From an uncultured Acidimicrobiaceae bacterium (GTDB lineage Bacteria > Actinomycetota > Acidimicrobiia > Spongiisociales > UBA5794), in the NCBI GenBank assembly GCA_964579415.1, contig CAZOGW010000003.1, positions 7,759-71,758 on the forward strand: a stretch of 64,000 nt of DNA, given 5' to 3'. A program made the translations under genes and the position numbers. Shown here in pieces: positions 2,814 to 42,334 of the stretch (the stretch's first letter is position 1; each line of letters starts with the position of its first letter). The notes under the pieces are model-generated. The model was not told where the DNA came from. It did not search any database and saw only the letters and a list, made by a program, of their open reading frames with translations.

Positions 2814-2854
2814 TTGGCGCACTGGCAACTCAGCCCTGGAGCTAGGGCGTGTCT

Positions 2855-3391: not shown

Positions 3392-3425
3392 GACCCCCGA
3401 ATCGAGCGGATCCTTGTAGTTCGAC

Positions 3426-17803: not shown

Positions 17804-20800
17804 ATGTTCCAGCCCCACGCTTCGCGAGCGCCTGCCGTCGCGCTTCCGCCAGGGGCGCCGCCCAATAATCCCAGCGTGACGGCCATCGCGGAGGCCCGCC
17901 GGACTTGGATGGCGTACGACCGTGCCTTCCACGTCCAGGCTGACTCGGTGTCGCTGGTCGCCGAGCTCATGCTTCCGGCATCTGACCTCGCCGAGATGGT
18001 CAACGCTCTCACCGTTATCGGCACGCAGCCGCCCGCCGCGACAAAGGCGGACGTGAAGCACGGCGCCACGGCGCTGGCGGTGCTGATGCCCAACGTGTGT
18101 CGCGAAGACTACGGCGAAGCGACCTTCTGGCCCCACTTTTGGGACCGGATCGGTGTCCCACAGCCCCGCCGGCAGGCACTCCAGACCGCCTTCGGCGAGA
18201 CCTTCCTCGAAGGACTCAAGCGCGCGCGGTGGCCCGCGTTCGATGACGTTGGACAGAAGTACCTCGCCAACATCCTCATGCATGCCGGCGTCCCCGATGC
18301 GCTGCTTCCGGACTGGTTCGAGCTGCTGGACGCGGCGACCCGCGCCGTGACCTTGGAGCCCGACCTCGTCACCCGTTGGATCAGGGATAGAGCGGGTGTG
18401 GGAGGCCTGCCGTGGGTGAACGTGCCCCTGCGCCGGCTGGTCTTGCATGGCGGCCCGTTCGCGGCGGATCTGATCGAGCGCAGCCTGACGTTGCTGGACC
18501 TTGTCCGATCGGGCTCCGACCGCGACCCGGCCTTCCTGGGCCTCCCTCCGGCCTACCTCACAGCTGCCGAGACCCACTGTCGCGCCCGCGCTGCTCTACG
18601 GGCGACCGGGGGCATCCGGGCAGCCTCGGCTCCCGTGCTGCGGCTGGTGCCGGAGGAGGGTCGAGTCGAGCTCGCCCTGCCACAGCTGGAAGACGTCGTA
18701 GACACGTTGCGCTGGCTGGTCAAGATCGAGCAGCGCACCGTCGAGATCGTCCCGCATCGGCTCTGGGGCGGCGATCGGGTCCAGTTCGCAGGGGCAACAG
18801 TCCCGGTGGACACACCGACACGGTCCATTGAAGTCCGTGCCATCGGCGCGGATCGAGCCGCCCTGGTACCGGTCGTTCCTGATGACCTGCCGTTGCTCGC
18901 CTTCGACCGAAGCGGTGCGGCTATTCGGGTAGCTGAGGGACTGCCAGCCGAGCCGGTATGGCTCCTGGGACCTCCGTCGGGGTCGGCTGCCGGTCCCCAG
19001 CTCAGCGTCGTGGGAGGCCGCCTGATGGCCGACATGGGGTCACCCCTGGGATGGGCCGGCTGGCCGCTTTCCCTGTGGGATCTCGGCGGCGCCGAAGCGG
19101 TCGAGGTGGGGGATCACACAGTAGGTCTCACACGCCGCACGCGTGCCCAGATCGAGTCGGCGCCTGCCGGGCATGTCGAGGCCGCCTCGATCGCCGGGCT
19201 GCCCCTGCATACGCAGCGTCCGGCCGTCAGTCTCCCGGCTGGCCACGCACAGTGGTCGGTGACGGTCAGCGACTACCAGACCGGTCAGATCGTGACCGAG
19301 CTCCGACACCAGGGTGAGGCTATGAGCCTGGACCCGTTCGCGGGGATGCCCGCCCCCATCGTCGGCGCATTCACGATCGTTGTGCGTGGACCTTTGGGCC
19401 GCGGCGCCAGCCGCACTTTCGCGCTCGCCGAGGGACTCAGCGTCAAGGTCGAGCCACACTTCCGGACCTTCGGACCTGACGGGCTGCGACCTGCCCGGGC
19501 CGCGATCGCCTTGCCTGGGGGCACGACCTCGTCTGCTGTGGTGGAGTTCGCCGCGGCTGAGCGACTCAGCTCCGTGCTGGTCACCGGTGCTGAGGGGCGG
19601 CAGGAGCGCATTGTCATCCAGCCCCCCTCGCTCGCTGTCGCGATCCAAGCTGAGGGCCAACCGCCGGGAGCGTGGAGCAACGGCCCTATCACGGTGCTGA
19701 AAGAGGACTTGGTCCATACGCACTTGCTCTTGCGGATCGGGCTCGGAGCACAGCCGGAGCTGGCCGTGTGCAGCGGAAACAGCGCGGTTCAAACTCTGGA
19801 CCCGATCTCGGTGACAGCAGAGCGGAACGTCGCATACAAGCTTGCCCGGATCGTCGACTCGGTTGATCACCTTGGGGCCAATGGACTCGTGCTCGGTCGT
19901 ACGTCCGACGATCCGGGGGTCCTGGTCGCGCGAATCGTTCCGCGGAAGCTGGCCACAGGAATCGCGGTCGACGACCCGGGGCTCCGGTTGGTCGATCCAG
20001 GCAGCGGTGACCTGGAGGTTGCGCTGTGGAGCACGGGCGAGCCTTGGCGTCCACCCATCGTCCGACGCTGCGACCAGGACGGTCGCATTGCGCTGCTCCC
20101 TGGCGATGTTCTCTCCGGAAGAGTCGTCGCCGTGCCCCGAGTCAGCGACCCGTGGAGCCTGCCCGACCCGTTCCCGCGATTCCCCTACCGGTTCAGCATG
20201 CTCGTCAGCGATCCCATGTCGGCCGAGGAGGAGTCGACCATTGCGCCCGCCGATACCTCGGTTGAACGGGCGTGGGCCACGGTCCTGCTCAACGTGGTGC
20301 TGCCGGGCTCCGTCCAGGCCAGCGGGCTCGCGGACGCCCGCCAGGCCCTGGATGCGCACGGACCGGAGGCCCTCGCTGCACTATCGACGTTCGCCCTGCC
20401 GCCAACGGAATCAGCAGCGGCCCTCGTCCGCACAGGCGTCGCTGGGGCATGCTCGAATGTCGCGGGCGATGACCTCAGCATCGCTGAAAGCCTTCGCGCA
20501 GATCCTGTGGCCGCTTCCCTGGCGCACCTGCCGACGGTGATGGCGCGACCCGACGACTTTCCGGAAGCACGCCTCGCGGTGCGCGACGCGTTGGGCGATG
20601 CGGGGCTGGCCTTCCTCGACACCGGTGTGGACGATCACATGGCTGCTGGCGCTTACGGGGATGACCCCTCGCTGATCGCGCTCGCACGACTCCGGAAGGC
20701 CGACGTGGCGCGGTTCGAGACGTTGCTGGCGTCCATGGCGCTGCGGCCGGTCGGGCTGCTCCACCCTGACAACCGGGTTCTCCGGTCGGTCGAGATCTTG

Positions 20801-21157
20801 GAGCGTGTCGGAGCCGAGCGCGTTCGGATCCTTGCCAAGGACTCGCTCAAGCTCGTGGTGACCGTCCGGGCATCACTGGCGAAGTCAGGGTTCGACCGGG
20901 CCGCTCACGCAATCGAGGAGCGAGGCGTGTCCGACGGTACGCCGTGGCTCAACCTCTCGGCCGCGTCGCTCGCCTGGTGCATAGCCCTGCGATACGGGGC
21001 TCGGGGACATGAGCTTGAGAGGCTGAGCCCACATCCTCAGATGTCCTCCTGGCGCGAGAACGCGCATGCCATAGCACCACTACAAGCCGTTGACCTCGTG
21101 CTGGCGGAGATCCATGCCTCGCACGACCTGCCGATCAACGATGGGAGACGACGGTGA
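17804..21157 (+). CDS. Large hypothetical protein (1117 aa), translationally coupled to the downstream helicase+DUF1998 gene; DruH-like by position (Druantia type III)
   Basis: No recognisable motif. Its stop TGA (21155-21157) overlaps the GTG start (21154) of the next gene as GTGA. Size and context match DruH. Confidence 0.6.
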   Translation: MFQPHASRAPAVALPPGAPPNNPSVTAIAEARRTWMAYDRAFHVQADSVSLVAELMLPASDLAEMVNALTVIGTQPPAATKADVKHGATALAVLMPNVCREDYGEATFWPHFWDRIGVPQPRRQALQTAFGETFLEGLKRARWPAFDDVGQKYLANILMHAGVPDALLPDWFELLDAATRAVTLEPDLVTRWIRDRAGVGGLPWVNVPLRRLVLHGGPFAADLIERSLTLLDLVRSGSDRDPAFLGLPPAYLTAAETHCRARAALRATGGIRAASAPVLRLVPEEGRVELALPQLEDVVDTLRWLVKIEQRTVEIVPHRLWGGDRVQFAGATVPVDTPTRSIEVRAIGADRAALVPVVPDDLPLLAFDRSGAAIRVAEGLPAEPVWLLGPPSGSAAGPQLSVVGGRLMADMGSPLGWAGWPLSLWDLGGAEAVEVGDHTVGLTRRTRAQIESAPAGHVEAASIAGLPLHTQRPAVSLPAGHAQWSVTVSDYQTGQIVTELRHQGEAMSLDPFAGMPAPIVGAFTIVVRGPLGRGASRTFALAEGLSVKVEPHFRTFGPDGLRPARAAIALPGGTTSSAVVEFAAAERLSSVLVTGAEGRQERIVIQPPSLAVAIQAEGQPPGAWSNGPITVLKEDLVHTHLLLRIGLGAQPELAVCSGNSAVQTLDPISVTAERNVAYKLARIVDSVDHLGANGLVLGRTSDDPGVLVARIVPRKLATGIAVDDPGLRLVDPGSGDLEVALWSTGEPWRPPIVRRCDQDGRIALLPGDVLSGRVVAVPRVSDPWSLPDPFPRFPYRFSMLVSDPMSAEEESTIAPADTSVERAWATVLLNVVLPGSVQASGLADARQALDAHGPEALAALSTFALPPTESAAALVRTGVAGACSNVAGDDLSIAESLRADPVAASLAHLPTVMARPDDFPEARLAVRDALGDAGLAFLDTGVDDHMAAGAYGDDPSLIALARLRKADVARFETLLASMALRPVGLLHPDNRVLRSVEILERVGAERVRILAKDSLKLVVTVRASLAKSGFDRAAHAIEERGVSDGTPWLNLSAASLAWCIALRYGARGHELERLSPHPQMSSWRENAHAIAPLQAVDLVLAEIHASHDLPINDGRRR

Positions 21158-24100
21158 CGAGCACGTCCCTGGACGCCATGAGCGCGAGCGCGCATATAGA
21201 GTCGGACTATCGGCGGTACGTGGGCTCGCTCATGGAGCCCCGTGAGGCCCCCCTTGCTGACGCGCTGGCAAGGGCCACCAGAAGTCATCCGATCGCAAAA
21301 GGCCCCTACCTCGAGGTCACCCCCCCGTATCGACGGGGCCGAACGATTCGACAGCTCATTGCTGAGGGACTCCTCCCCGCTGGGTTCGACAGATTGGGCG
21401 GCCCGGCTTTGCCGCTCGACCGGCCTCTCTACGCGCATCAGGAGGAGGCGCTGCGCAAAGTCCGGGCCGGGCGAAACGTGATTGTCTCCACCGGGACCGG
21501 TTCGGGAAAGACCGAGTCCTTCCTGCTTCCCATCCTGGCCCACCTCGTCTCCGAAGAGGAGGCGGGAACGCTCGGACCGGGAGTCCGCGCGCTGCTGCTA
21601 TACCCGATGAACGCGCTGGCCAATGATCAGATGAAGCGCCTGCGGGCCGTCCTGGCCGACCACCCCGCCATCAGCTTCGGACGCTACGTCGGCGACACCC
21701 GGGAGGAACCGAAGGATGCGAGGGCGGCCTTCGCGGACATCAACCCCGGCGAACCCCTGCTGGCGAACGAACTGCTGTCGCGCAAGGAGATGCGTGCCAC
21801 TCCACCGCACCTGCTGCTGACCAACTACGCGATGTTGGAGTACCTGCTGCTCCGGCCGGCCGACCTGGACCTGTTCGAGGGTCATGGAGCGTCGACCTGG
21901 TCGTTCGTCGTTGTCGACGAGGCCCACGTGTATGACGGCGCTCAAGGGGCGGAGATCGCCATGCTCCTGAGGCGGCTGCGCCATCGTGTGCGACCCAACG
22001 ATGGTTTGCGTTGCATCGCAACGTCAGCGACCGTGGGCGACCGCGGGGCCGAGCCGCGAGTGACGGCGTTCGCGGCCGACCTCTTCGACGCCCCGTTCGA
22101 GTGGGTTGAGGGACAACCGGGTCGCCAGGATCTGGTCGTCTCTCAACGCGTCCATCCTCCAACAGGCACATGGGGACCGATCAGCTTCACATCGTGGGCC
22201 CAGTTGGCCTCGGCATCCGATCCAGACCCCCGAATCCTCGAGTTGGCCGCCCAGTTCGGCCGACCTGGGATGAGCGTGTTCGAGGCGCTCTCCACCGAGC
22301 GGACCATCGCACGTCTGCGCGACTCGCTCGTCGACCGTCCCAAGCGTGCCGACGTCTTGGCGGGCGACCTTGTCGGTGACGCCGACGATCCCCTGAGGAC
22401 CCTGCACCAGGTCATCAGCGTGGGCAGTCGTGTCACCGACGAGTTCGACTCGCCACTGATCTCCGCCCGCTACCACCTGTGGTTGACGAGCATCGAAGGC
22501 GCGTTCGCGTGCCTGCACCCGACCCAGCCGCATGTGACGCTCTCGCGTCATGAGATATGTGAGACGTGCTCGCGTCCCATGTACGAGATCGCCGCGTGCA
22601 AGCGCTGTGGAGCGGTCCATGCGCAGGGCGTTCGAATCACCGGTCAGGGTCGCGAGAAGCTGGTGCCCCGGGTGCGCCTTCAGGACGCTCCCACTTGGAT
22701 CGTCCTGGAGACCACCTCGGTCGAGGATGAGGATGAGCAGGAGGCCAACGTTGCGGCCGAGGCTCCCCAGATCCGCGACGCGGCGTTCTGTTACGACTGC
22801 GGCACACTCTCAGGGCCCGAGGCCGGCACCTGCGCAGGCTGTGATTCGAACACGCTGCGACATGTGGCGCTCATCGAGGGCAGGCGCCGCGAGCTTCGGA
22901 TGTGCCGAGCATGCGGAGCCAGGTCCAGCGGGATCATCCGTCCGCTATCCGCGGGCGCCGATGCGACCACAGCAGTGCTCACCACCTCGCTTTACGAGCA
23001 GCTGCCACCTGGTCCGCAAGATATTCGGGACAACCCAGGGGATGGCCGTCGCCTCCTGGCCTTCAGCGACTCCCGGCAGGCGGCGGCATACTTCGCTCCC
23101 TACCTGCAGACCACGTACGGGCGCATTCAGCATCGGGCAATGGTCCTCGAGGGAGTCCGACGCGCAGAGGAATTGGAGCGCGGCCCGGCGCGGCTCCGGG
23201 ACGTCATCTCCCATACCGCTGATGCCGCCTCGGAGGCCGGGTTCTTCTTGTCACGTGACAGTCGTCAGCTGAAGGAGCGACAGGCCGGTACATGGCTCTC
23301 CGCTGAGCTGGTGGGAGTGGACGACCGCCAGTCCCTGGAAGGGCTCGGACTGCTCCGCGTCGAGTTCGAGCCACTCGACGGAACACCGTTGCCCCGCGGG
23401 TTCGCGGATGCGGGTCTGACCGACGAAGTAGCGCTAGGCGTCGTGGCCGAGCTCATCCGATCGGTCCGCCTGCAAGGGGCGATGAGCATGCCGGCGGGCG
23501 TAGCCGCCGATGATCCGCTCTTCGAACCTCGGGTCGGGCCCTTCTACATCAGGGAAGGCGCAGCCGAGGTCAAGCGGAAGGTGTACTCGTGGATGCCGAC
23601 GAAGGGCCGCAATCGACGCCTCGACTACGTAGAGCGGGTATTGGCCCGCCTTGACTCCCGTGCGGACCCCAAGCGCCTGCTTCAGGGCATCTGGGCGTTC
23701 GCCTCCGATCCTCGGGCGATGAGATGGATGACCTCGGCCACCGTTCGGGTGCTGGGGGCCGTGTGGCAGGTCGACTCGGGAAGCCTCCTGCTGTCCACGC
23801 TCAAGCCGGGTGCGTCGGTCTGGCGGTGCTCGTCGTGCCGGCGCCTCGCATCGGCAAGCGTGGCGGGCGTCTGCCCCGCGATGGGTTGTTCCGGTGAGTT
23901 GCAGGCCCTTGTGACGCCGACCGAGAGGGAGGAGACGAACCACTACCGCCTTCTCTATCTCGCCCAGCGGCATATACCCCTCTCCGCCGAGGAGCACACA
24001 GCCCAGTGGACGAGCGAGGAGGCGGCCGCCGTCCAGCAGCGGTTCCTCCGCGGGGAGATCAACCTGCTGTCGTGCTCCACGACGTTCGAGCTGGGCGTGG

Positions 24101-25800
24101 ACGTCGGTGACCTGCAGAGCGTGGTCCTGCGCAATGTGCCTCCGACGACCGCGAACTACGTCCAGCGGGCTGGGCGAGCCGGGCGACGGGCGGAAAGCGC
24201 CGCGCTGGTCCTCACGCATGCGGCGCTGCGATCTCACGACCAGAGTCGCTTCGCCCGGCCTGAGACCATGATCAAGGGCGAGGTGCGCACCCCGGCCATC
24301 CCTCTGACCAACGAGCGGATCGATCGACGGCATGCCCACTCGGTCGTGATCGCAGCCTTCTTCGCCGAGCAGTCACGGCAGCATGGCCGCGTATGGAAGA
24401 AGGCGGGCGAATTCTTCGTTCCAGACGACGATGCGCAATCGGGGCCGGCGCTGTTGCGGGAGTTCTTGACTCCACCCCCGCAGGCGCTCGTCGACTCGGT
24501 CCGGTCGATCCTCCCCGAGCCGGTTGCCCAGGAGATCGATCTCGATGGCTCAGGCTGGGTCGACGAGCTTCTCGCACGTGTCCTGACGATCTCCGAGGAG
24601 CTCCACACAGACCTTTCCTACTTCGAGGCTCAACGGCAGGCGGCATTCGAGGCACGCAAGGACGGCCTCGCCCAGCAGTTCGGCCGCATCGTGAGGACGC
24701 TTCGCGAGCGGGATCTCATCGGTGTCCTGTCCCGGAAGAACGTCCTGCCGAAGTACGGCTTTCCCGTCGACGTCGTGGAGCTGCGAACGGCGCACGTCGT
24801 CGAGGGCGGCGGAAGCAGACTCTCTCTGGACCGGGACCTCACCATGGCAATCAACGAGTTCGCGCCTACCGCGCAGATCGTGGCCGGTGGAAGCCTCTGG
24901 ACGTCAGCCGGCCTATACCGCCTACCGCAACGCGGATTGGAGACCAAGTTCTACGCGGTCTGTGGCGGCCCGGCAGGGTGCGGGAGGTTCAAACGGAGCA
25001 ACGACAGGGATGAACTCGGTGCTCAGTGCGATGTGTGTCAGAGGGATTGGCGTGTCAGCCAATGGGTGGTCCCCGAGTTCGGCTTCGTGGCCGATCGCCA
25101 GCCCACGAGAGCGGGGGCCGAGCCACCCAAGCGGATCTGGAACAGCGCCACCTATATCCAATCGATCGGCGCCGATGTGACCGAGATGTCCATCGACCTC
25201 CCGGGTCGGAGCCTCTCACTCACGTTCGGGACCCGAGGCGAGCTCGTCACGATCAACGAGGGCTCCACTGGTGCTGGTTTCCTGATCTGTGAGTGGTGCG
25301 GGCGCGGCATGGAACTCACGGGCACGAAGATCCGAAAGCACAAGCGGACTTTCAAGGACGAGGACTGCGAAGGGCCATTACGCCTCCAATCGCTCGCGCA
25401 CCACTACCAGACGGATGTGCTCGCGATCGACGCCGGGATCGACCGATGGGCCGACAGGGGCGCAGTGCTCTCCGTCCTCTACGCGATCCTCGAGGCTGGA
25501 GCGATGGAGCTTCAGCTCTCACGTGACGACATCGACGGGACCGTAGAAGTGACGGGCAAAGGCCAGCGGTTCGTGCTTTTCGATACGGTCCCTGCCGGAG
25601 CAGGCGCCGCTATCTCCATCGCCCATCAGCTGGGCCCGATCCTCGACAAGGCGCTCACCCGTGTCACCAACTGCGAATGCGGGGAGGAAACCAGCTGCTA
25701 TACGTGCCTTCGAAGTTTCAGGAACCAGCGCTTCCACGAAGTGCTGAGCCGCGGAGCAGCGAAGGACTTCCTCGGGGGGCTCCTCGGGGTCGCGAGCTAG
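21154..25800 (+). CDS. DruE-like (DrmA/B-like) SF2 DEAH-box helicase with C-terminal DUF1998 zinc-ribbon domain (1548 aa)
   Basis: Motif I VIVSTGTGSGKTESFLLP, Ia LLLYPMNALANDQ, II VVVDEAHVYDG, V-VI LLSCSTTFELGVDVGDLQSVVLRNVPPTTANYVQRAGRAGRR. The C-terminal Cys clusters CGGPAGCGRF...CDVCQ and ICEWCG, and NCECGEETSCYTCLRSFRNQRFHEVLSRGAAKDFL, match the DUF1998/MrfA Zn-binding hallmark. Confidence 0.85.
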   Translation: MTSTSLDAMSASAHIESDYRRYVGSLMEPREAPLADALARATRSHPIAKGPYLEVTPPYRRGRTIRQLIAEGLLPAGFDRLGGPALPLDRPLYAHQEEALRKVRAGRNVIVSTGTGSGKTESFLLPILAHLVSEEEAGTLGPGVRALLLYPMNALANDQMKRLRAVLADHPAISFGRYVGDTREEPKDARAAFADINPGEPLLANELLSRKEMRATPPHLLLTNYAMLEYLLLRPADLDLFEGHGASTWSFVVVDEAHVYDGAQGAEIAMLLRRLRHRVRPNDGLRCIATSATVGDRGAEPRVTAFAADLFDAPFEWVEGQPGRQDLVVSQRVHPPTGTWGPISFTSWAQLASASDPDPRILELAAQFGRPGMSVFEALSTERTIARLRDSLVDRPKRADVLAGDLVGDADDPLRTLHQVISVGSRVTDEFDSPLISARYHLWLTSIEGAFACLHPTQPHVTLSRHEICETCSRPMYEIAACKRCGAVHAQGVRITGQGREKLVPRVRLQDAPTWIVLETTSVEDEDEQEANVAAEAPQIRDAAFCYDCGTLSGPEAGTCAGCDSNTLRHVALIEGRRRELRMCRACGARSSGIIRPLSAGADATTAVLTTSLYEQLPPGPQDIRDNPGDGRRLLAFSDSRQAAAYFAPYLQTTYGRIQHRAMVLEGVRRAEELERGPARLRDVISHTADAASEAGFFLSRDSRQLKERQAGTWLSAELVGVDDRQSLEGLGLLRVEFEPLDGTPLPRGFADAGLTDEVALGVVAELIRSVRLQGAMSMPAGVAADDPLFEPRVGPFYIREGAAEVKRKVYSWMPTKGRNRRLDYVERVLARLDSRADPKRLLQGIWAFASDPRAMRWMTSATVRVLGAVWQVDSGSLLLSTLKPGASVWRCSSCRRLASASVAGVCPAMGCSGELQALVTPTEREETNHYRLLYLAQRHIPLSAEEHTAQWTSEEAAAVQQRFLRGEINLLSCSTTFELGVDVGDLQSVVLRNVPPTTANYVQRAGRAGRRAESAALVLTHAALRSHDQSRFARPETMIKGEVRTPAIPLTNERIDRRHAHSVVIAAFFAEQSRQHGRVWKKAGEFFVPDDDAQSGPALLREFLTPPPQALVDSVRSILPEPVAQEIDLDGSGWVDELLARVLTISEELHTDLSYFEAQRQAAFEARKDGLAQQFGRIVRTLRERDLIGVLSRKNVLPKYGFPVDVVELRTAHVVEGGGSRLSLDRDLTMAINEFAPTAQIVAGGSLWTSAGLYRLPQRGLETKFYAVCGGPAGCGRFKRSNDRDELGAQCDVCQRDWRVSQWVVPEFGFVADRQPTRAGAEPPKRIWNSATYIQSIGADVTEMSIDLPGRSLSLTFGTRGELVTINEGSTGAGFLICEWCGRGMELTGTKIRKHKRTFKDEDCEGPLRLQSLAHHYQTDVLAIDAGIDRWADRGAVLSVLYAILEAGAMELQLSRDDIDGTVEVTGKGQRFVLFDTVPAGAGAAISIAHQLGPILDKALTRVTNCECGEETSCYTCLRSFRNQRFHEVLSRGAAKDFLGGLLGVAS

Positions 25801-25809
25801 GAGGGTCGG

Positions 25810-26406
25810 ATGACGCGATTGACGACGTTGGAGGACGTCACCCTGACCAGCGCTGGGAGCCCGGTGGCCCACATCGGGCAGGACGTGGGGGGCAAGGACA
25901 CCTCGGGGCGCCTGCACACAAGCGTGGTCAGCTGCTCTGGGGGTTCAGTGATGCTGCAGCTTGCGTACTTCGAGTACGGGGACCGGCCTGAGGGGGAGGT
26001 GGGATGCCTGGACCATCTCGGAAGTCCGGTGTACTTCGGCCCCCGTATCGGCCTTGTCGGACGCCTTCGGATCGGGGTGTACACGAGGGAAGGCGTCACC
26101 TTCGGGGAGTTGGGAGGCGCTGAGTTCGTGGCTGACAAGGGTCCAGCCAGGTTCAAGGCCCAGAAGAAGACGTGGCCCACGCTCCCAGAGCTTGACCGAC
26201 GGGCTGGCGGGTCGGTCGCCGGCTTCCTCAGCGAGAAAGGGATCGTTCGGCTCGGATCGCGCGAGGAGCTGTTCGGCGACCGCACGAGGATGCGCAACAG
26301 GCTCGCCGCACGGTTCCAGGACGCATCAGCCCCGGCACCGCCGATGTGGGTCTTCGTGGCCACCCGGGTTGTGCCCCTGGTGAGGCAGTGGGAGGAGGGA
26401 CTGTGA
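25810..26406 (+). CDS. Hypothetical protein (198 aa), co-transcribed with the DruE-like gene
   Basis: GGAGGG Shine-Dalgarno-like sequence then ATG 10 nt after the DruE-like stop. Its stop overlaps the next start as GTGA. No motif recognised. Confidence 0.5.
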   Translation: MTRLTTLEDVTLTSAGSPVAHIGQDVGGKDTSGRLHTSVVSCSGGSVMLQLAYFEYGDRPEGEVGCLDHLGSPVYFGPRIGLVGRLRIGVYTREGVTFGELGGAEFVADKGPARFKAQKKTWPTLPELDRRAGGSVAGFLSEKGIVRLGSREELFGDRTRMRNRLAARFQDASAPAPPMWVFVATRVVPLVRQWEEGL

Positions 26407-27797
26407 CGACGACGCCCACCCATGACCTGTATGTCGGCGCAGCACCGATCTACCACCCGACCGAGCAGACGCCAGGGCAGATGGTCGGCGCGTGGTCGAC
26501 CGCGCTGGGTGCTGCGGCCGCCGAGCTGGGAGCTGTCTTCGACGCGTTCCTGAAGGACCGCATCGGCCCCGATTGGCGGCCCGCATTGGAGAATGTCCGG
26601 GCAGAGCGGGAGAGGAAGCCCAACTACAGCATCAATGTCCGCGATCCCCAGTGGGTCTTCTCCGAGGCGAAGAAGCCGAACAGCCCCCTTCATCCAGCGA
26701 TGCGTCCAGGCTGGAGCCGAAGCTTCGGAGACGTGATCGAATGCCGGAACGACTGGTACCACTACAACCATCAGTGGACGCTGGACGAACTGGTGAACTC
26801 GATCGAGGCTCTCTACCGGGCGACGCGTCTGTGGCCCGAGCTGCGCGTGAATGACGCCGTCAAGGCCCTTCATGTCCATCTCGGGAGGCTGCGGGAGCAG
26901 CGGGTCCTCCCCGGCCCGCGGGAGAAGGAGCTGCGCAACCTGCTCGCGGACCAGGCACGGAGGGCAGAGGAAACTCAGGCAGAGCTGGGCGGGCAGCTCG
27001 ACAGCCTCCGCAGAATCGTGGCGGAGCAAGCCGGCAATGCCGAGCTTCAGGACCTGTTGCGGGGACAGATAGCTGAGAACGAGGAGCGGGCTCGCGTCGC
27101 CGAGGAGCAGTCGCGGATGCTCGAACGACGGCTGGCCGAGCTGGAGCGCGAGGCCGCAAATCAGGCTGATCCTGACTCGCTGCTTCCCATCACGATTCGA
27201 CCCGGCGACAAGTGGCCCGATGACGTTCCGCACGGACGGCGTGTCATGAAGCTCATGGCGCGACCCGTGGATCAGATCTTCGACCCGGCGAAGGGTGACT
27301 TCATCACGTCAGAGCTCGGGGATGTGGCCCGTGCGGCGGCGACTCGTTGGCACGAGGTGATGCCCCTGGGTGGGGAGATCCACGTGACGGACGGTTGGAA
27401 CAGTGCCGGCCGGGTGAACGGTGTGTGGACCTATCTCGGCCGTCTCGACGATCCAGGAGAACAGGATCGAACACTGGGGGCGGCGATCAGCGACTTCCTC
27501 GTACCGCGCAGCTACGCGCTGCTCACATCCGAGGTCGTCGATCTCAGGAGTGACGTCCGGCTGACCGACGTCCGGCCGGAGACGGCGGAACTCACTATCG
27601 AACGGCTTGAGTCCGCGGTCGCGGATGCTCGGGCCCGCCAGCTCTTGGAACGTGAGGAGATAACTGACGGCGAGGAGGATTCCACTGGCCTTCGCATCAC
27701 CGTGAATGGACACGTTGTCGCCACGTTCGGAGAGGATCGTGGGTACCTGGCCACTGTGACCCCCGACGAGTGGTTCCCCGGGCACCTTCGCGAGTAG
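26403..27797 (+). CDS. Hypothetical protein (about 464 aa) with a candidate HEPN-like RNxxxH motif and a long coiled-coil segment
   Basis: GGAGGAGG Shine-Dalgarno-like sequence then GTG at 26403; the track lists an alternative upstream start at 26346. Motif SFGDVIECRNDWYHYNHQW (R-N-x3-H, the HEPN Rx4-6H pattern). Heptad-like charged region LRNLLADQARRAEETQAELGGQLDSLRRIVAEQAGNAELQDLLRGQIAENEERARVAEEQSRMLERRLAELEREAANQ. Confidence 0.55.
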   Translation: MTTTPTHDLYVGAAPIYHPTEQTPGQMVGAWSTALGAAAAELGAVFDAFLKDRIGPDWRPALENVRAERERKPNYSINVRDPQWVFSEAKKPNSPLHPAMRPGWSRSFGDVIECRNDWYHYNHQWTLDELVNSIEALYRATRLWPELRVNDAVKALHVHLGRLREQRVLPGPREKELRNLLADQARRAEETQAELGGQLDSLRRIVAEQAGNAELQDLLRGQIAENEERARVAEEQSRMLERRLAELEREAANQADPDSLLPITIRPGDKWPDDVPHGRRVMKLMARPVDQIFDPAKGDFITSELGDVARAAATRWHEVMPLGGEIHVTDGWNSAGRVNGVWTYLGRLDDPGEQDRTLGAAISDFLVPRSYALLTSEVVDLRSDVRLTDVRPETAELTIERLESAVADARARQLLEREEITDGEEDSTGLRITVNGHVVATFGEDRGYLATVTPDEWFPGHLRE

Positions 27798-28024
27798 GGG
27801 CCCCCGGTCTGGCCCCTGGGCACTCGACAGGTGGCGTTGACCTAAGTTTTGCACGTGAGTGAATTGAATAGGGCCGGCCCGCAATGACATCAATTGACCG
27901 ACCGATCCGAGACATGCTGGCTTCGCATGCTGCCGACGCTGGCGCGGCACGCACTGCCTTCGAATCGGAGCCGAGATGGCCCAGCCCAACTCCCAGCCGA
28001 GCCTTCATTCACAGCGGGCCCGAG

Positions 28025-31000
28025 TCAGTACTTCGGTGCCATTCTCTCTGCGTCTGTCGGAGGCGGAAAGTCCCTTGGGGAGAAGACCGGGCCATCAAGG
28101 ATGCGATCCAGAAGATCCCGAGCAACCGGCGTCACGTCGATCGTGTTCTGCAGGATCGATATGACAGCGAGGAGTTCGTCCGTGAAGACCCACTCCACGT
28201 ACCGGATGTCGTCGAGGGGGCTGGACTTCCTGCCCTTGCCGCCCGCCATTCGGTTTCCGAGCCAGGATTGCAGGACTCTGAGCCCGGAAACCTCGAAGTC
28301 ATAGACGTCTTGGCTTACGGGCGCGATGGCCCCGTTTCCCACTAAGAGCTCGGATGTCTTAGAGTCGTACCCGAACGTTGTTGGCCTCCCGCTGATCCGT
28401 CGAACTTCCCTTGTCGAGATCACAAGCTCATCCTGCCTGCCGCGCTCTCCGAACGTGTGCCACCCGATCAGGTCACGACCGAGCGCGACGGTCTCGTCGA
28501 AACAGCCGACGTCCTTTGTAATCGGGATGCGAGGGCCCGTGGTGAGCGCAGCAACTTCCTTCGCGAACCGATCGCTGTAGGCGCCGGTCCCTAGGATGCC
28601 GTAGACATACGCAGCCACATCCTCAGGTTCGATACCTGCGCGAAGTTCTTTGCGCAATAATTCCAGGACTCCGCTGGCAACGTTCGAGCTGGTCCGGGCC
28701 GCGTCGCGCCATAGGGGCATCACTCCCTTGTCGCCTCGGCCGCGAAACGCGTGGCAGTCAGGTACATCGGCGAAGGCCATCAGTGCGGGCCCGGCGCCGA
28801 GTGGCGACATCACGAGGGTTTGGAAATAGATCTGCTGGTCACTGGAACAGCCCCACAGCTGCGGCCGCAGGTAGTCTCCCAGGCGTCCATCGGGCATGCA
28901 CCATTCTCGATCAAAAGACCGATAGGCGTATCGACGAATGGTAGGTACGGGGCTCGTCGCCGGCAGCGCTTCGATTGGCGCTAGGGGCGTCCCGGTCAGC
29001 ACGTCCTTGTAAGGCTTCGAGGCCTTTCTGTCACGAGATTCCTTGAGCAATGCGCCGCGGCCCGCTGGCTCGGCAGCCATAAGGGCAGACCAGCGACGCA
29101 CAAGGTCGTCGGCTGACTCCGCTATTGGCCATGTGCGATAGAAGTGGAGGCCGGTCTCCCGCCAGGGGAAGAGATCGGTAAGAAGCGGGAGGGAGTCGAA
29201 GCTCGTGTCGGCTGCGGGTAGGAACGACGACGCGCATCCACCCTCGATCGTGAGCCAACTGGGGTCGGCTTGGTCAAGTCCAGCGAGGTTGTCGAGCAGC
29301 TGGAACTTGGTCGCTCGGTCACCGCGGATCCTCCGGTAACGGATCTGCGTGCGCTGTGGGCCCCGAGTTCGGTAGCGAACCCCGACACCTATAACCACGG
29401 GGGTCAGCACGCCGTCAAAGACGTTGTCCTCCCTGTGGACGCCCCGCCCCTCGCCCCCCAGGTCGACGAGCCACAGTTCGTCGAAGGTCTTTCGCATAAA
29501 CTCGCGCATTCCCGCGAATGCGGGGCCTGCAAGGAATGAAGAGGGCGAGATGAGGGCAATAACTGCTGGCCCCGGGCTTTGCTCACAGGCCTTCCAGATT
29601 GCCCAACGCCAGAAGTAGACGTAGTCGTTGTAGAGGGACTTCGCATAGACCCCCATACCGTCCCGCTTCAGGGGCGCAATAAAATCTCGGATAAGACCGT
29701 AGTCATTCGTCAAACCGTGATAGCGAACAAGTCCGCCCTTTCGCCTTACGGTGGACTTCGTCTGCGACTCGTCGCGATCATAGGGCGGGTTTCCTATGAT
29801 CACCGTATGGTTACGCTCAAACTTTCTCTCATTTGCTCGGTGGCCCTCGAGAGAGATAGGGTCGTCGAAGATCTCCAGAACTTGTGAAGGTCCTTCCAGT
29901 GTGTCGGTCAGGAAGACTGGAACCGAGACGTCTGACACGCCGACTTCAAGCTGAATCTTGAGTTGGGAGACTGCGTACGAAGCGAGTGAAACCTCGAACG
30001 CTGTGTACCGGTCGAGGACGTCCTCCGCAGAGCGCCCTACTCCTCGGGCCGCCTTGAGCCACTGGACCAGGAAGGTTCCAGTTCCGTTGGCAGGGTCGAG
30101 GGCGTTCAGGATGGGGTCGCTCGGGCGCGCTAATGGGGGCGCGTCCCAACACAAGTCCTGCCATGTGGATTGGTCTGCGATACCGCGTTGCAGACCTACG
30201 GACATCTTGAGGGCCGTGTCCACAGCGCGGATCATGAACCGAACGACGGGCAGCGGTGTGTAGTACGCCCCGAGATTCCTGCGCTGCTCCGGGTCGTACT
30301 GGGCCAGAAACTCCTCGTAGAAGTACACGACCGGATCGTCACGCTGATTATCCGCACCGAAGTCGGCGAGCAGCTCGTCGACGTCTGTCCTCGCCAACTC
30401 CTCCGCCAGCTCGTTGAGCCCGAGCTCGTCCACGTCGATGATGCCGTCGGAGTCGTCACGGAAGCGCGAGTAGATGGCATCGAGGAAGTCGTTGTCGAAC
30501 CGCAGCGTCGAGACGGACTGCTCGACCTTGAACTGATCCGGGTGGGCGATCCGGGCTGTCAGCAGGCCGTAGACCATGGTCTGCGCGTAAACGTCTGCAA
30601 ACCGTTTGGGTGTGAGGTCGCCGAGTAGCTGGGTACGGACGTCCTGAAAGAGCGCTCGAATCGGCCCATCCTCCGTCTCGACCTCATAGAGCGCGCGGAC
30701 CTCGTCGCGGACGTCCTGGGCTACTTCGGCCATGCGCCGCGACAATGCTGCCGCGGATCTGATGCCTTCCCGATATCCGTGGAAGCCGTCGCCGGAGTCG
30801 GGGCTCAGGATGATCCTCGGACCTGAGCCGGGCGACCAGACCAAGTCCGGCACGCCGCGGCGAACCAGAAGGTCAAGCCGGGTACTCGTGAGCTCATCGC
30901 TCCATGACATGACCCGCAGGACGCGCTTGCCGTCCCTCTCTCGGAAGTTCACGACGTGCAACAGCTTCTCGTGTCCATCAGAGAGGCAGAAGAACAGCAG

Positions 31001-31363
31001 GTCGTTGAGGGACCACTGGGCGTGAGTGCCGCTGCCTGTGCGGGCCCGCTCGTTCTTGACCAGCCGATGTACCAGACGTCGGATCGCGCCGATCGGGAGC
31101 CGGCCACCTTCGAAGTCCAGGACGAAGGTGCCGAAGCCTTGGTTCTTCGTCAGGGGCGGGATCTGCGAGATCCGCTTGAGATTGGCGACCTTCTCCGGGT
31201 CGAGATGGAGCTCCTCCGGCTCCCACGCCAACTCAAGTTCATCCCATGACATGCCGTCAGGGATCGGCCAATCGAGCCCGTTGAGCAGCAGATCGAGCAG
31301 GTGATCGGCTGAGGTGGGAGCCGCTCGGAGCAGCTTGCGCATGCGATCCTCGGCGACGCTCAT
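28025..31363 (-). CDS. Large gamma-class N6-adenine DNA methyltransferase (PglX / DrmMI / type IIG-like), 1112 aa
   Basis: LGAYYTPLPVVRFMI; motif I LDPANGTGTFLV; motif IV IIGNPPY. Long unknown N- and C-terminal extensions as in PglX. Overlaps the upstream gene by 4 bp (31360-31363). Confidence 0.85.
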   Translation of the reverse strand: MSVAEDRMRKLLRAAPTSADHLLDLLLNGLDWPIPDGMSWDELELAWEPEELHLDPEKVANLKRISQIPPLTKNQGFGTFVLDFEGGRLPIGAIRRLVHRLVKNERARTGSGTHAQWSLNDLLFFCLSDGHEKLLHVVNFRERDGKRVLRVMSWSDELTSTRLDLLVRRGVPDLVWSPGSGPRIILSPDSGDGFHGYREGIRSAAALSRRMAEVAQDVRDEVRALYEVETEDGPIRALFQDVRTQLLGDLTPKRFADVYAQTMVYGLLTARIAHPDQFKVEQSVSTLRFDNDFLDAIYSRFRDDSDGIIDVDELGLNELAEELARTDVDELLADFGADNQRDDPVVYFYEEFLAQYDPEQRRNLGAYYTPLPVVRFMIRAVDTALKMSVGLQRGIADQSTWQDLCWDAPPLARPSDPILNALDPANGTGTFLVQWLKAARGVGRSAEDVLDRYTAFEVSLASYAVSQLKIQLEVGVSDVSVPVFLTDTLEGPSQVLEIFDDPISLEGHRANERKFERNHTVIIGNPPYDRDESQTKSTVRRKGGLVRYHGLTNDYGLIRDFIAPLKRDGMGVYAKSLYNDYVYFWRWAIWKACEQSPGPAVIALISPSSFLAGPAFAGMREFMRKTFDELWLVDLGGEGRGVHREDNVFDGVLTPVVIGVGVRYRTRGPQRTQIRYRRIRGDRATKFQLLDNLAGLDQADPSWLTIEGGCASSFLPAADTSFDSLPLLTDLFPWRETGLHFYRTWPIAESADDLVRRWSALMAAEPAGRGALLKESRDRKASKPYKDVLTGTPLAPIEALPATSPVPTIRRYAYRSFDREWCMPDGRLGDYLRPQLWGCSSDQQIYFQTLVMSPLGAGPALMAFADVPDCHAFRGRGDKGVMPLWRDAARTSSNVASGVLELLRKELRAGIEPEDVAAYVYGILGTGAYSDRFAKEVAALTTGPRIPITKDVGCFDETVALGRDLIGWHTFGERGRQDELVISTREVRRISGRPTTFGYDSKTSELLVGNGAIAPVSQDVYDFEVSGLRVLQSWLGNRMAGGKGRKSSPLDDIRYVEWVFTDELLAVISILQNTIDVTPVARDLLDRILDGPVFSPRDFPPPTDAERMAPKY

Positions 31364-34300
31364 CGGATCTCCATCCAGCAGAGCGTCTTGGGGCTGGGTG
31401 CGTCGAGTGGCAGTTGTGTCTCCTTGCGCAGTCGCTTGGTCTCACCACGCTCGAATTCGCGCAGCGTAGCTCGGAGGCTGGATCGGTCACTAAACGCTTG
31501 CGCTTGGTCAGTCGGTTGGGCGGAGATAGCAGCGTCGACGGTGTGCAGGCCCCGCTCGACGCCGTCCGAGGTGCGCAGCGCCCACTCCACCGCGCCGGTA
31601 TCGAGCGTCCATTCCGAGTCCGCGTCGTCGTCGTGCGCCTTGGTCAGGACGGGCACGCGGCGGCAGATGAACACTCCAGACGGTTCGCCGGTCTTCGCCA
31701 CCGAGATACCCTCGGGCAACCGTTCGATCAGCTCCTCCAGGCCCGGGTCGTCCTTGACCAGCTGAAGCCATGTGAGGCGGAGCGCCTCGATCGGGGCGAT
31801 GTCGCCGTCGTATTCGTCCTTGAACGCCTGGAAGACCTTCACGTCATCAAACATGTCGCTCTCGTCGAAGAGCTTGCCGCCAGGTATGCCGAGGGCTTTC
31901 GAGATCATGAGCGTCTTGTTCTGAACTCGGTTGTAGAGCGTGAGCAATGCCTCGATCTCTGCGGGCGGAAGGAAGTTGCGGATCTGAATGTGCCCTCTGG
32001 ACTTCTTGGCGGACGGCTTCTCCCGGATGAGCTGGGCCTCGATGACAGGGTTCATCCGGCGGTCTACACGACCGATGCGCTGCATGAGCCGCACCGGGTT
32101 CCAGTGGATGTCGTAGTTGACCAGCAGAGTGCCGTCCTGGAGGTTCACACCCTCGCTCAGAACGTCGGTGGAGATGAGGACTCGAAGAGGGGCGAGGGTC
32201 CTGCGGTCGGCTGCTGAAACCTTGTTGTAGAACGGGGCGAACCGCTTGATCATCGCGTAGCGGTCGTTGCTGCGGGTCCCGTCCAGGCGGTCGATATCGG
32301 CGACGCCATCCTTCCTGAGCTGTTCTTCGAGGTAGCGAGCGGTGTCGGCAAACTCCGTGAACACGATGACCTGTTCATTGCGGAACTCTGGAGTGAAGAC
32401 CGCCTTGTCCAGGGTCCTGATGCCTGCCTTGGACGGTCCGAGCAGCAGGTCGCGCAGGCGCAGGTACTTGTCGTCGTACCCGGCACCGGCGAGGGTCAGG
32501 TCCATGAAGCGGTTGAGCTGGTCGAGGTCCTCGAAGGCAGCGTCGATCATCTCCTGGAGGTTGTACTCCCCACCCACGAGGTTGACGCCCAGCTCGCCCA
32601 GCTCCTCCTCGGTGAGATCCTCCTCGTGCCAGACTTCTTCGAGCGTTGAGCGGTAGCGGTCGTGGATGGCCTGCAGCGTCGAGTCATTCGCAGCCCGCCA
32701 GTCGGCGAGCCGCATCTGCTGATCGGGGTCGATCCTTGTGTTGACGTCCAGCCAGTGCAGGATCTTGGCCGACAGATCCAGACAGGAGCCAGCGAATGCG
32801 GCGAGGCTGGACTCGAACCGCTTCAGGAAGATGGTCCGGATGAGGGCGACGACCTGACGCTGCCGGTTCTCCGCCACCGTGTCGACGTCTTCGTCCTTCG
32901 AGAACGCCAACGGGTAGTACATCGGCAGGACGAACAATGGGGTCTTGCGGTTGAAGGCATTTTGAAGTTCGGTGAAGAGCGGGGAGTAGAGAGCGCCGAA
33001 CTCGTACTCCACGACGCGAGGGACCTGGGTCTCTGGGAATACCACGTCCGCGCCGCCAACGATTCGCGAGCTCTCGATGGCGTATTTTCGGCTGCTCTGG
33101 TGGATGATCGATTGGAACAGCTTGTCCCGTGACATCAGGCCCGCGATGGCTGCGTGGTCGGGCACGTTGCTCTTGAACGGCTTCTCCAGTTCGACGGTGT
33201 ATTTGCGCAGACTGTTGACGCCGATGCTGGCGAAGTGGTCGTCGGCGTCGACCCCGGTGAACAGCTCAGCCTGATGCACAAGGTCGAAGAAGGAGTTGTT
33301 GATAGGTGTCGCGGTGAGCAGGAACACGGTCTTGCCCTGGCAGATCTCATGCATCCGCCACCATCGAGAACCCCACGGATTCTCCTCTGTGGGGGTCTTG
33401 CCGTGGTTCCGGAAATTGTGGGCTTCGTCGATGATGATGACATCGGCTCGCTCGGCGAGGTGCTCGATCTCCGCGAGACCCTGCTTGGTTGTCAGGTCGG
33501 TGTGCGCCCGGACAAGCACGTTGGAGAACTGGCCGAACAGCGAGGGAAGCTTCTCCTTGAGCTCGGGGCTCCACACGGCGTCCTGGCCAGTCTTGGTGGC
33601 CATGATGAGCACGTTCTTTCGGTGTCGCACCGCGTAGTACTCCGTGAGCATCAGGCCGACGAAGGTCTTGCCCAGCCCGACGCCGTCAGTGAGGAATCCG
33701 CCATTCCACCGTCGTGACATCTCAATCAGTGCGTGGAACGCCTCGCGCTGGTACGGCGCCAGCATCGGGTAAATGACGGATTCGGATTCCTCCCAACTCT
33801 TGTCGGTCTGATCCACGTTCGCCGTCAGTGCATGAAGCGCCTTCGCATAAACCTCGAACGGAGTGAACCCGCGGATGTTGTGCTCTAGCACCGACAGTAG
33901 CTCGGCATTGACAGGGGTGGCCAACTCCCAATGCTGCTCATACCATGACTGCAGGTCGGCGACCTCCGGGCCCTGGAACCTTACATTGAGCTCGACGTTC
34001 TGCGTCAGTCCCGGGCGGGTGAAGTTGGAGGAGCCGACCAATGCCGCGGAGCCGACAACCTTGAGCTTGCTGTGCGTGATGTATGCCTTCGCATGGAACT
34101 TCTTCGGCTTGTAGACGCGAATCTCGATCTTGTCGTTGCGGATGCCATCAACGACAGCTTCTATGCCGGCCAGAAAGGCGTCTCCGTTCTGGCGCTCGAT
34201 AACGATGGATGTATCGAGCGCGGCTGCGATTGCGTCTGCGGTCGTGCGGCTAGTCTCGCCGCCGATGAGAAGGCGGATCTTGTTGACCTTCTGCCAGGCT

Positions 34301-34446
34301 CCATCCAGAGCGAGGAAGGCTCCGATCTCGAAGTGCCCACTGGCGATGTCTATCGCCGAACTGATGTCGCACCACTCTCGGACGTACTGCAGCGCCTTCC
34401 ACTCCTCGTCGGTGTTGTCGACGATGAACTGCTCAGGAGTCGCCAT
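31360..34446 (-). CDS. Phospholipase-D-family (HKD) nuclease domain fused to SNF2-family helicase (DrmC+DrmD-like fusion), 1028 aa
   Basis: N-terminal KFHAKAYITHSKLKVVGSAALVGSSNFTRPGLTQNVELN is a PLD HxK(x)4D...N motif. SNF2 motifs GFLTDGVGLGKTFVGLML (I), DVIIIDEAHNFRN (II) and VFLLTATPINN (III). C-terminal helicase lobe LRVLISTDVLSEGVNLQDGTLLVNYDIHWNPVRLMQRIGRVDR. Confidence 0.85.
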   Translation of the reverse strand: MATPEQFIVDNTDEEWKALQYVREWCDISSAIDIASGHFEIGAFLALDGAWQKVNKIRLLIGGETSRTTADAIAAALDTSIVIERQNGDAFLAGIEAVVDGIRNDKIEIRVYKPKKFHAKAYITHSKLKVVGSAALVGSSNFTRPGLTQNVELNVRFQGPEVADLQSWYEQHWELATPVNAELLSVLEHNIRGFTPFEVYAKALHALTANVDQTDKSWEESESVIYPMLAPYQREAFHALIEMSRRWNGGFLTDGVGLGKTFVGLMLTEYYAVRHRKNVLIMATKTGQDAVWSPELKEKLPSLFGQFSNVLVRAHTDLTTKQGLAEIEHLAERADVIIIDEAHNFRNHGKTPTEENPWGSRWWRMHEICQGKTVFLLTATPINNSFFDLVHQAELFTGVDADDHFASIGVNSLRKYTVELEKPFKSNVPDHAAIAGLMSRDKLFQSIIHQSSRKYAIESSRIVGGADVVFPETQVPRVVEYEFGALYSPLFTELQNAFNRKTPLFVLPMYYPLAFSKDEDVDTVAENRQRQVVALIRTIFLKRFESSLAAFAGSCLDLSAKILHWLDVNTRIDPDQQMRLADWRAANDSTLQAIHDRYRSTLEEVWHEEDLTEEELGELGVNLVGGEYNLQEMIDAAFEDLDQLNRFMDLTLAGAGYDDKYLRLRDLLLGPSKAGIRTLDKAVFTPEFRNEQVIVFTEFADTARYLEEQLRKDGVADIDRLDGTRSNDRYAMIKRFAPFYNKVSAADRRTLAPLRVLISTDVLSEGVNLQDGTLLVNYDIHWNPVRLMQRIGRVDRRMNPVIEAQLIREKPSAKKSRGHIQIRNFLPPAEIEALLTLYNRVQNKTLMISKALGIPGGKLFDESDMFDDVKVFQAFKDEYDGDIAPIEALRLTWLQLVKDDPGLEELIERLPEGISVAKTGEPSGVFICRRVPVLTKAHDDDADSEWTLDTGAVEWALRTSDGVERGLHTVDAAISAQPTDQAQAFSDRSSLRATLREFERGETKRLRKETQLPLDAPSPKTLCWMEIR

Positions 34447-38407: not shown

Positions 38408-38626
38408 GGGCTGCCCTCCGTTGAGGCACGGCAGTCGCACTGTGCAGTGCCGAGGCCCCTCGATTCCTGCTGACCAAGTATTCCGCTGGGTCGCTCGGCC
38501 GATGACCTTCAGGGTGCAGTTCAGTTCTTGAGCTTGCGCGGTTGACGTGGTCGGCCGACCCTCGGCGCCGCGCGTCCGGCTCCCCACTGCGCCTAGCCTC
38601 GGAGGCCCGAGTCGCGGCCGCATGCC

Positions 38627-41092: not shown

Positions 41093-41093
41093 G

Positions 41094-42323: not shown

Positions 42324-42334
42324 GAGGCAGCGCG

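Follow-up and report, generated by a model that had tools for sequence, protein, structure and literature searches.

X-Y, a gene pair with a predicted HEPN domain behind a DruE-like helicase, and its recurrent association with DNA-restriction genes

The 64,000-nucleotide stretch of contig CAZOGW010000003.1 analysed here (the window), from an uncultured Acidimicrobiaceae bacterium, carries on its + strand a helicase gene resembling DruE of Druantia and, directly behind it, two genes that we call X and Y, the second of which encodes a protein with a predicted HEPN domain. X and Y close a series of four tightly successive open reading frames (ORFs) that begins with ORF-A and the DruE-like gene.

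17804..21157, + strand: ORF-A, 1117 amino acids (aa), in the position of DruH and overlapping the DruE-like gene by 4 nucleotides (nt)
21154..25800, + strand: DruE-like helicase of the YprA family, 1548 aa (PADLOC DruE1, E 4e-178; DruE3, E 1e-175)
25799..25809, + strand: DruE-X spacer of 9 nt, with an AGGAGG Shine-Dalgarno sequence at 25799-25804 that overlaps the DruE stop, as read from the sequence
25810-26406, + strand: gene X, 198 aa, small partner of Y, ATG start at 25810
26403-27797, + strand: gene Y, 464 aa, GTG start at 26403
26436..26912, + strand: predicted HEPN domain of the Swt1/Abi2 clade, Y residues ~12-170
26745..26762, + strand: R115-N116-D-W-Y-H120, at the C-terminus of helix 104-119 and predicted to be the catalytic Rx4H motif
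26916..27164, + strand: predicted antiparallel two-helix coiled-coil hairpin, Y residues 172-254, variable in length
27171..27794, + strand: C-terminal alpha/beta region, Y residues 257-464, divided into C1 (257-352) and C2 (353-464)

The TAG stop of the DruE-like ORF occupies 25798-25800 and is followed after 9 nt by the ATG of X, a distance too short for a promoter or a terminator. Because of this junction X and Y are almost certainly co-transcribed with the DruE-like operon; a scan of the + strand from DruE to Y returned no promoter-like or terminator-like site, and was uninformative. The stop of X and the start of Y overlap through GTGA at 26403-26406, with GGGAGGAGGG at 26390-26399 ahead of the GTG start. 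An earlier note on this DNA had read the same arrangement, a 198-aa ORF just after the DruE-like stop and a roughly 464-aa ORF overlapping it by GTGA, and both readings hold, the spacer being counted here as 9 nt. X and Y are real genes, since they are kept as a pair in other loci and since the protein collection holds NCBI-derived products of exactly 198 aa (P0003) and 464 aa (P0001). The most similar pair, on contig L001, is 43% (X) and 47% (Y) identical to that of the window, and the remaining loci show about 19-37% (X) and 25-44% (Y) identity. On the - strand an ORF of 478 aa (25797-27233) spans both genes; the high G+C probably accounts for it, as both the NCBI-derived products and the conservation among homologues favour the + strand genes. 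A GC-rich hairpin after Y (27791-27826) was considered as a terminator and rejected, its folding being no better than that of shuffled sequence (z -0.21).

An exhaustive search of 1.84 billion representatives places Y in a genuine but rare family, with 108 members at E<=1e-3, 56 at E<=1e-10 and lengths of 330-460 aa. By a word-indexed search, a single Y homologue (P0002, 47% identity) and no relative of X were found. Y has no significant direct match in Pfam, NCBIfam, PADLOC, PHROGs or the sequences of the Protein Data Bank (PDB), and X has no match in any of these. The genome_contigs scan gave no relative of the window Y, a single-protein scan recovered only Terrabacter, and copies of X-Y were absent from the scans of plasmids and viral_contigs and from two scans of metagenome_contigs.

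A 50-member alignment (A2) resolves Y into an N-terminal domain (~12-170), a helical spacer of variable length and a C-terminal region. All of the 47 N-domains compared, at a mean column identity of 37%, share W58, D81, R115, N116 and H120, and E88 and S94 are at least 90% conserved among them. The R-N-x3-H motif (ECRNDWYHYNHQ) that the earlier note had picked out, followed by a heptad-like region, is present as RNDWYH, and the conservation of its R..H pair, which that note had asked for in homologues, is complete. By itself the motif RN...H is not above chance: the window has three copies of it within stretches of 100 aa or more that are free of stops, one of them in the MZB domain of DruE at 25720. 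Its invariance over 47 homologues is above chance. The copy in the MZB/DUF1998 domain of DruE (RSFRNQRFHEVL; 25720-25737, +) is retained in L001 as RNQGHH, and a bare RNxxxH is therefore not diagnostic of HEPN.

AlphaFold2 models of Y reach a mean predicted local distance difference test score (pLDDT) of 89 for the full-length protein and of 95.2 for the N-domain alone (predicted template modelling score 0.89). RNDWYH ends helix 104-119 and runs into the loop preceding helix 127-141, in agreement with the published description of HEPN domains, in which the motif lies where helix 3 ends and in the loop to helix 4, a polar residue follows the R, and an insert occurs between helices 2 and 3 (PMC3710099). 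The predicted N-domain is all-alpha with a four-helix up-and-down core similar to solved HEPN domains, its best structural match being the C-terminal domain of yeast Swt1. In a Pfam scan of the 50 members the sole recurrent family other than coiled coils was PF18731 HEPN_Swt1, matched by eight members (best E 5e-4) in alignments of near full length, such as P0047 residues 23-133 on profile positions 2-114 of 115. In a profile search against PDB sequences three HepT toxins came up below significance, with the RN..H motifs in register. These four independent lines, each moderate alone, agree, and we assign the N-domain of Y to a divergent HEPN domain of the Swt1/Abi2 clade; we infer the RNase activity of Y from the predicted signature and fold. 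The HEPN fold anticipated by the earlier note thus stands at the level of the predicted structure, but the curated Pfam threshold is not reached. Matches to Lipase_GDSL_2 in four Y homologues were judged not significant.

The heptad-like region behind the motif is predicted to be an antiparallel coiled-coil hairpin of two helices (Y 172-208 and 213-254) with a likeness to prefoldin-type coiled coils. It is the least conserved part of Y, at 30-34% identity to the closest relatives. The best-conserved part is C1 (257-352), which is found in all members and is 62-65% identical to P0002 and P0004; C2 (353-464) is absent from short family members of ~330-350 aa. Within the C-terminal region G346 is invariant, and G268, W271, R280, L284, D294, G306, W316 and G332 are conserved in at least 90% of members. 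Neither the C-terminal region as a whole nor C1 has a sequence match in PDB or Pfam.

X is the small obligate partner of Y. Its homologues lie directly upstream of Y in all loci examined (alignments A4 and A7), and its own profile search gave two matches only. X and nine homologues showed no nucleotidyltransferase match and no significant Pfam match at E<=1, and no PDB match; X likewise has no sequence match to DUF3780 and no minimal nucleotidyltransferase (MNT) or DNA-binding signature. Imm75, weakly matched by two X homologues (E 0.07), was judged not significant.

Thirteen X-Y loci could be compared: the window, L001, L002, L003-6, L007/8/18, L009, L010, L011, L012, L013, L014-17, L021-24 and the P0047 contig, of which L009 and the P0047 contig are too short to judge neighbours. 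The overlap of X with Y, of either 1 or 4 nt, is common to all 13, and the two are a translationally coupled pair. The loci span 35% to 68% G+C. Those with informative gene order, besides the window and L001, are arranged as follows (protein lengths in aa in brackets; PLD-SNF2, a helicase-nuclease with a PLD and an SNF2 domain).

L002 (Y 42-44% identical): methyltransferase (1363), PLD-SNF2 (1178), X, Y
L003-6: AAA+ (935), X, Y, convergent with SNF2 (1174) and methyltransferase (1363)
L007 (Terrabacter sp. MAHUQ-38): PLD-SNF2 (1027), methyltransferase (1128), BrxHII/DrmD-like SNF2 (1094), X, Y
L010: X, Y, GmrSD, convergent with PLD-SNF2 and methyltransferase
L011: X, Y, GmrSD, adjoining a divergent SIR2 gene
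L012: GmrSD, X, Y, preceded upstream by copies of the methyltransferase and helicase genes that are interrupted
L013 (35% G+C): GmrSD, X, Y
L014-17 (48% G+C): X, Y, PLD-SNF2 (1077), methyltransferase (1080)
L021-24: UvrD-like helicase (801), X, Y, then, 8 kb downstream, a PLD-SNF2 gene

The pair thus lies immediately behind or beside large genes of DNA-directed defence, which encode helicases of the YprA/DruE, SNF2, PLD-SNF2 and UvrD-like kinds, GmrSD and an AAA+ ATPase. Immediately ahead of X stands DruE in two loci, GmrSD in two, and PLD-SNF2, a BrxHII-like SNF2, a UvrD-like or an AAA+ gene in one each; GmrSD stands downstream in two further loci, and in L009 and L011 the pair begins its own transcription unit. 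A co-directional gene for a large nucleoside triphosphatase (NTPase) or nuclease lies within 130 nt of X-Y, or overlaps it, in 8 to 10 of the 13 loci. The most constant neighbour is a PLD-SNF2 helicase-nuclease together with an N6-adenine methyltransferase. The helicase was found within 10 kb of X-Y, in several arrangements, in all eight loci with enough flank (window, L002, L003, L007, L010, L012, L014, L021), and the methyltransferase accompanies it in seven of the eight, the helicase gene of L021 running off the stretch with its partner out of view. Between subtypes these helicases are only 25-30% identical. Upstream of the intact GmrSD-X-Y genes of L012 the methyltransferase and PLD-SNF2 genes are split into short ORFs (~100-7100, -) whose products are 53% and 33% identical over hundreds of residues to the L002 proteins; the breaks stem either from a decay of this pair or from errors of assembly. 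L007 (11162-15474) and L021 (7505-11934), two distant loci, share flanking genes for WhiB, a helix-turn-helix (HTH) protein and a DEAD helicase (~675 aa) in differing orientations, which hints at a common actinobacterial mobile-element backbone.

In the window, X-Y sits between such a PLD-SNF2/methyltransferase pair on the - strand and the compact DruH-like/DruE pair.

28025..31363, - strand: 1112-aa N6-adenine methyltransferase, C-terminal specificity domain of Type ISP (Pfam Type_ISP_C, E 1e-62, and N6_Mtase; PADLOC REase_MTase_IIG, E 9e-212)
31360..34446, - strand: PLD(HKD)-SNF2 helicase-nuclease, 1028 aa (Pfam PLDc_2, ResIII, SNF2-rel_dom and Helicase_C; PADLOC 'HKD+Snf2', E 9e-50)

The methyltransferase gene is convergent with Y across a gap of 227 nt and overlaps the PLD-SNF2 gene by 4 nt, and the two (28025-34446) are a split type ISP-like restriction system. 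Relative to Terrabacter sp. MAHUQ-38 (L007) the helicase is 82% and the methyltransferase 52% identical, whereas the Y proteins share only 27%. Such a far greater divergence of the methyltransferase than of the helicase is expected if the target-recognition domain has been swapped.

The gene upstream of X is a bona fide DruE-type helicase. Its product has the Pfam domains DEAD, Helicase_C and MZB (residues 1443-1519) and matches a solved DruE-like chain (9tu7, E 4.5e-76). It ends in the MZB/DUF1998 domain without a C-terminal nuclease. In having no PLD nuclease, unlike type III-A, it conforms to the compact III-B-like form, in which DruE most often has no nuclease domain (10.1101/2025.09.15.676423; 10.64898/2026.05.13.724758). 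ORF-A fits DruH by size and position only: it resembles DruH of M. smegmatis (1132 aa; PMC13316683) in length and in its overlap with DruE, and it has no match in Pfam, PADLOC (including the DruH models), NCBIfam or PDB, nor to the protein in the DruH position of C. butyricum. The DruH-like partners of compact DruE seem to be extremely divergent, or unrelated. Membership in ARMADA or DISARM was considered on the similar gene set (YprA helicase, SNF2-PLD, methyltransferase) and rejected: the helicase has no Vsr domain, has a partner in the DruH position and is convergent to the methyltransferase pair, and X-Y loci elsewhere are without any YprA helicase. PADLOC in its 2023 version has no ARMADA models, so that a placement with Druantia-like systems rather than with ARMADA draws in addition on the lack of a Vsr domain and on ORF-A upstream.

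Taken together, the best-supported reading, which we consider somewhat probable, is that X-Y is a portable RNA-targeting cassette for backup or abortive infection that accompanies DNA-restriction systems, most faithfully PLD-SNF2/methyltransferase pairs, and that in this lineage it has been wired into a Druantia-like operon. X and Y would form a complex that holds the HEPN site silent, with X in a regulatory role. Y's C-terminal domain, X or both would sense the trigger, which could be a phage cue or a breakdown or inhibition of the DNA-restriction machinery nearby. The HEPN domains would then pair through the coiled coil into a composite Rx4H site and cleave RNA, and the resulting stop of translation would be an abortive, second-line answer of the kind that PrrC gives for EcoprrI and that has been proposed for HEPN-DUF499 in the Hma and BREX-related (BR) systems. 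The model in which X holds Y inactive is drawn by analogy with PrrC/EcoprrI, HEPN-DUF499 and the 'backup effector' concept (PMC3710099; PMC12839542). Swt1-like HEPN domains have been found in operons with restriction-modification (R-M) components that include SNF2 helicases (PMC3710099), and stand-alone HEPN genes beside BREX/BR systems have been described as 'backup effectors' (PMC12839542). One extension, which we regard as tentative, is that X, Y, the PLD-SNF2 helicase and the methyltransferase make up an unnamed four-gene defence system of restriction type, in which X-Y takes the place of the HEPN-DUF499 protein of Hma/BR, guards or complements the DNA-cutting motor, and can be re-wired to DruE, GmrSD or UvrD-like helicases. 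If this is true, X-Y would in the window tie the Druantia III-B-like genes and the two restriction genes together as a single cooperating unit.

Several observations weigh against a portable backup cassette. All PF18731 matches fall under the curated cut-off (best 20.2 bits vs 27.5), and the Y of the window matches no Pfam HEPN model even at E<=10. X and the C-terminal domain of Y may, as far as their sequences go, have a different activity. The sample of neighbourhoods is small, the counts over its 13 loci ignore phylogeny, and the island backbone shared by L007 and L021 lowers the independence of some of them. L013 has no PLD-SNF2 gene within 7.7 kb upstream, its downstream side lying outside the view. 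Finally, the 9-nt junction with DruE, and the DruE-X-Y order kept in L001, could still point to a real functional link with Druantia within this lineage.

This last point leads to the proposal of the earlier note, that X-Y is a Druantia accessory or effector module, here in the form of a dedicated effector giving in trans the nuclease that compact DruE lacks. The proposal is partly supported. The 9-nt spacer, the ribosome-binding site that overlaps the DruE stop and the missing terminator speak for it, as does L001, a 2.9-kb contig on which an X homologue begins 17 nt behind a DruE C-terminus 72% identical to that of the window and Y (P0002) comes next, so that the order has been kept despite divergence of X and Y to 43-47% identity. 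The window DruE has no nuclease domain, as is usual for III-B-like DruE (10.1101/2025.09.15.676423; 10.64898/2026.05.13.724758), but a HEPN RNase is no like-for-like substitute for a DNA nuclease. Homologues of both genes follow DruE in L001 but in none of the 11 loci with other neighbours: DruE precedes X-Y in only 2 of the 13 (the window and L001), no YprA-like helicase lies near the pair in L002, L003, L007, L010, L012, L014 or L021, and X-Y does not emerge as a conserved component of DruE loci. P0004 of L002, the third-closest Y relative (42-44% identity) and a member of the same close clade, follows a PLD-SNF2 helicase. Conversely, X-Y is missing from the compact DruH-like/DruE locus that C. 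butyricum carries on a plasmid, and the actinobacterial two-gene DruH-DruE system of M. smegmatis is reported to be functional and sufficient for defence (PMC13316683). A dedicated Druantia effector is accordingly doubtful in our judgement.

Also unlikely, if less so, is an autonomous role of X-Y as a toxin-antitoxin or abortive-infection pair in which Y would be the HEPN toxin and X the antitoxin; the pair would then simply gather in defence islands and mobile elements without being functionally tied to its neighbours. A small upstream gene overlapping a larger HEPN gene by 1-4 nt is a typical toxin-antitoxin layout and is seen in all loci; the heterogeneous upstream neighbours and the separate transcription units of L009 and L011 suit such a pair, and HEPN toxins are common in toxin-antitoxin systems (PMC3710099). 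Yet X has neither an MNT nor a DNA-binding signature, Y is far bigger than the HEPN toxins of these systems and carries a conserved extra domain, and the plasmid and viral contig scans returned no copies. The closeness of large co-directional NTPase or nuclease genes in 8 to 10 of the 13 loci likewise argues for a link to the neighbours, and the PLD-SNF2 gene nearby in all eight informative loci is hard to ascribe to chance. We give very little credence to a non-catalytic HEPN-like domain acting as an RNA- or protein-binding scaffold, a role that has been proposed for the HEPN domain of yeast Swt1, Y then being a structural or regulatory subunit such as a coiled-coil adaptor. Its best structural match, the yeast Swt1 C-terminal domain, is possibly inactive (PMC3710099), and C1 rather than the HEPN domain is the most conserved part of Y. 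Inactive HEPN domains, however, typically lose the Rx4-6H motif (PMC3710099), whereas in Y the R, N and H are invariant throughout, together with D81 and a nearly invariant E88.

PrrC and RloC are HEPN-type anticodon nucleases of type I restriction loci, latent RNases that are freed once restriction is countered. X-Y shares with them the idea of a HEPN-type RNase encoded in or beside an R-M system; PrrC differs in its ABC-ATPase N-domain, its C-terminal nuclease, its association with type Ic systems and the lack of an X-like partner, and no sequence relation with Y was detected. The bacterial Swt1-like HEPN proteins of R-M-type operons, such as the Ava_2192-type HEPN-DUF499 ATPase of Hma and type-1 BR, have an N-terminal Swt1-clade HEPN domain with an intact RNxxxH in common with Y. 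The HEPN-DUF499 proteins of Hma/BR also adjoin an N6-adenine methyltransferase and an SNF2 helicase-nuclease, and have been proposed as a last-resort RNA-degrading effector (PMC3710099; PMC12839542). Of the Hma/BR genes, the N6-adenine methyltransferase and the SNF2 helicase-nuclease, with an N-terminal HKD domain in type 2, have their counterparts in the window (28025-31363 and 31360-34446) and among the homologues of these genes in the other loci. Y, in contrast, has no AAA+/DUF499 ATPase, carrying a coiled-coil hairpin and an unclassified alpha/beta domain and standing beside a separate X, and the core of Hma/BR was not found: neither DUF499 nor DUF3780 was matched by the window proteins or the precomputed Pfam labels of the X-Y loci. 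The minimal nucleotidyltransferase antitoxin of HEPN-MNT (HepT-MntA) systems has no match in X or nine of its homologues, and Y is 3-4 times larger than HepT. X-Y is therefore not a member of the BR/Hma or HepT systems, as it has no DUF499, DUF3780 or MNT. Unlike AbiF/AbiD (Abi2), it has no signature of a non-coding RNA.

Compact III-B-like Druantia type III shares with the locus a DruE-like helicase behind an overlapping gene of ~1100 aa, as in M. smegmatis (PMC13316683), but the described systems have two genes; X-Y belongs to no described type and mostly occurs without DruE. The neighbouring pair shares Type_ISP_C, the N6-methyltransferase and an SNF2 motor with a PLD/HKD nuclease with type ISP enzymes and the HKD helicase of type-2 BR. 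It differs from type ISP in being two genes rather than one polypeptide and in having a PLD rather than an Mrr nuclease, and from type-2 BR in the absence of the DUF499 ATPase and DUF3780, and X-Y has been described for neither. HEPN RNases in R-M-like operons, including Swt1-clade HEPN domains beside SNF2 helicases and N6-methyltransferases, are already known. New are a family absent from all libraries searched, the architecture of HEPN, hairpin and alpha/beta domain with an obligate small partner, and the neighbourhood rule.

HEPN RNases attached to DNA-restriction systems are considered a second line of defence, set off once restriction has failed, and few such pairs with a defined partner set are at hand. 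Current defence-finder pipelines miss the X-Y cassette because it is absent from Pfam, NCBIfam, PADLOC, PHROGs and PDB. Its near-constant company of PLD-SNF2 and methyltransferase genes, and its docking behind varied helicases, make it a testable case of RNA-targeting effectors plugged into DNA-sensing motors. For Druantia the locus counsels caution: genes trailing compact DruE need a family-wide check of their neighbourhoods before they are called components.

The window has ~67% G+C with a lower-GC stretch (59-66%) at ~11-39 kb, and just upstream of ORF-A lie, on the - strand (15820-17594), a DUF5131 (phage Gp37/Gp68-like) gene and a tyrosine-integrase ORF. These two genes, together with the drop in G+C from ~70% to 59-66% over ~11-39 kb, suggest an integrated mobile island. 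The defence island is prolonged upstream by three genes, and two large ATPase genes lie on the other side of X-Y.

4279-8787, - strand: 1502-aa protein with a weak sacsin-domain match
9672-10796, + strand: HTH and IrrE/Peptidase_M78 regulator
10802-13543, + strand: 913-aa superfamily 1 helicase (Viral_helicase1/AAA_30/UvrD_C_2)
36641-41248, - strand: 1535-aa protein with an OLD/GajA-type ABC-ATPase in its C-terminal third (AAA_15, AAA_21; PADLOC Old, E 9e-34) and a long unannotated N-terminal part
42119-45067, + strand: 982-aa double-AAA+ ATPase, IetA/TRIP13-like by PADLOC, 15 kb from X-Y

The last of these is 43% identical over 684 aa to the product of the AAA+ gene directly before X-Y in L003-L006, and may be a further recurrent companion of the pair.

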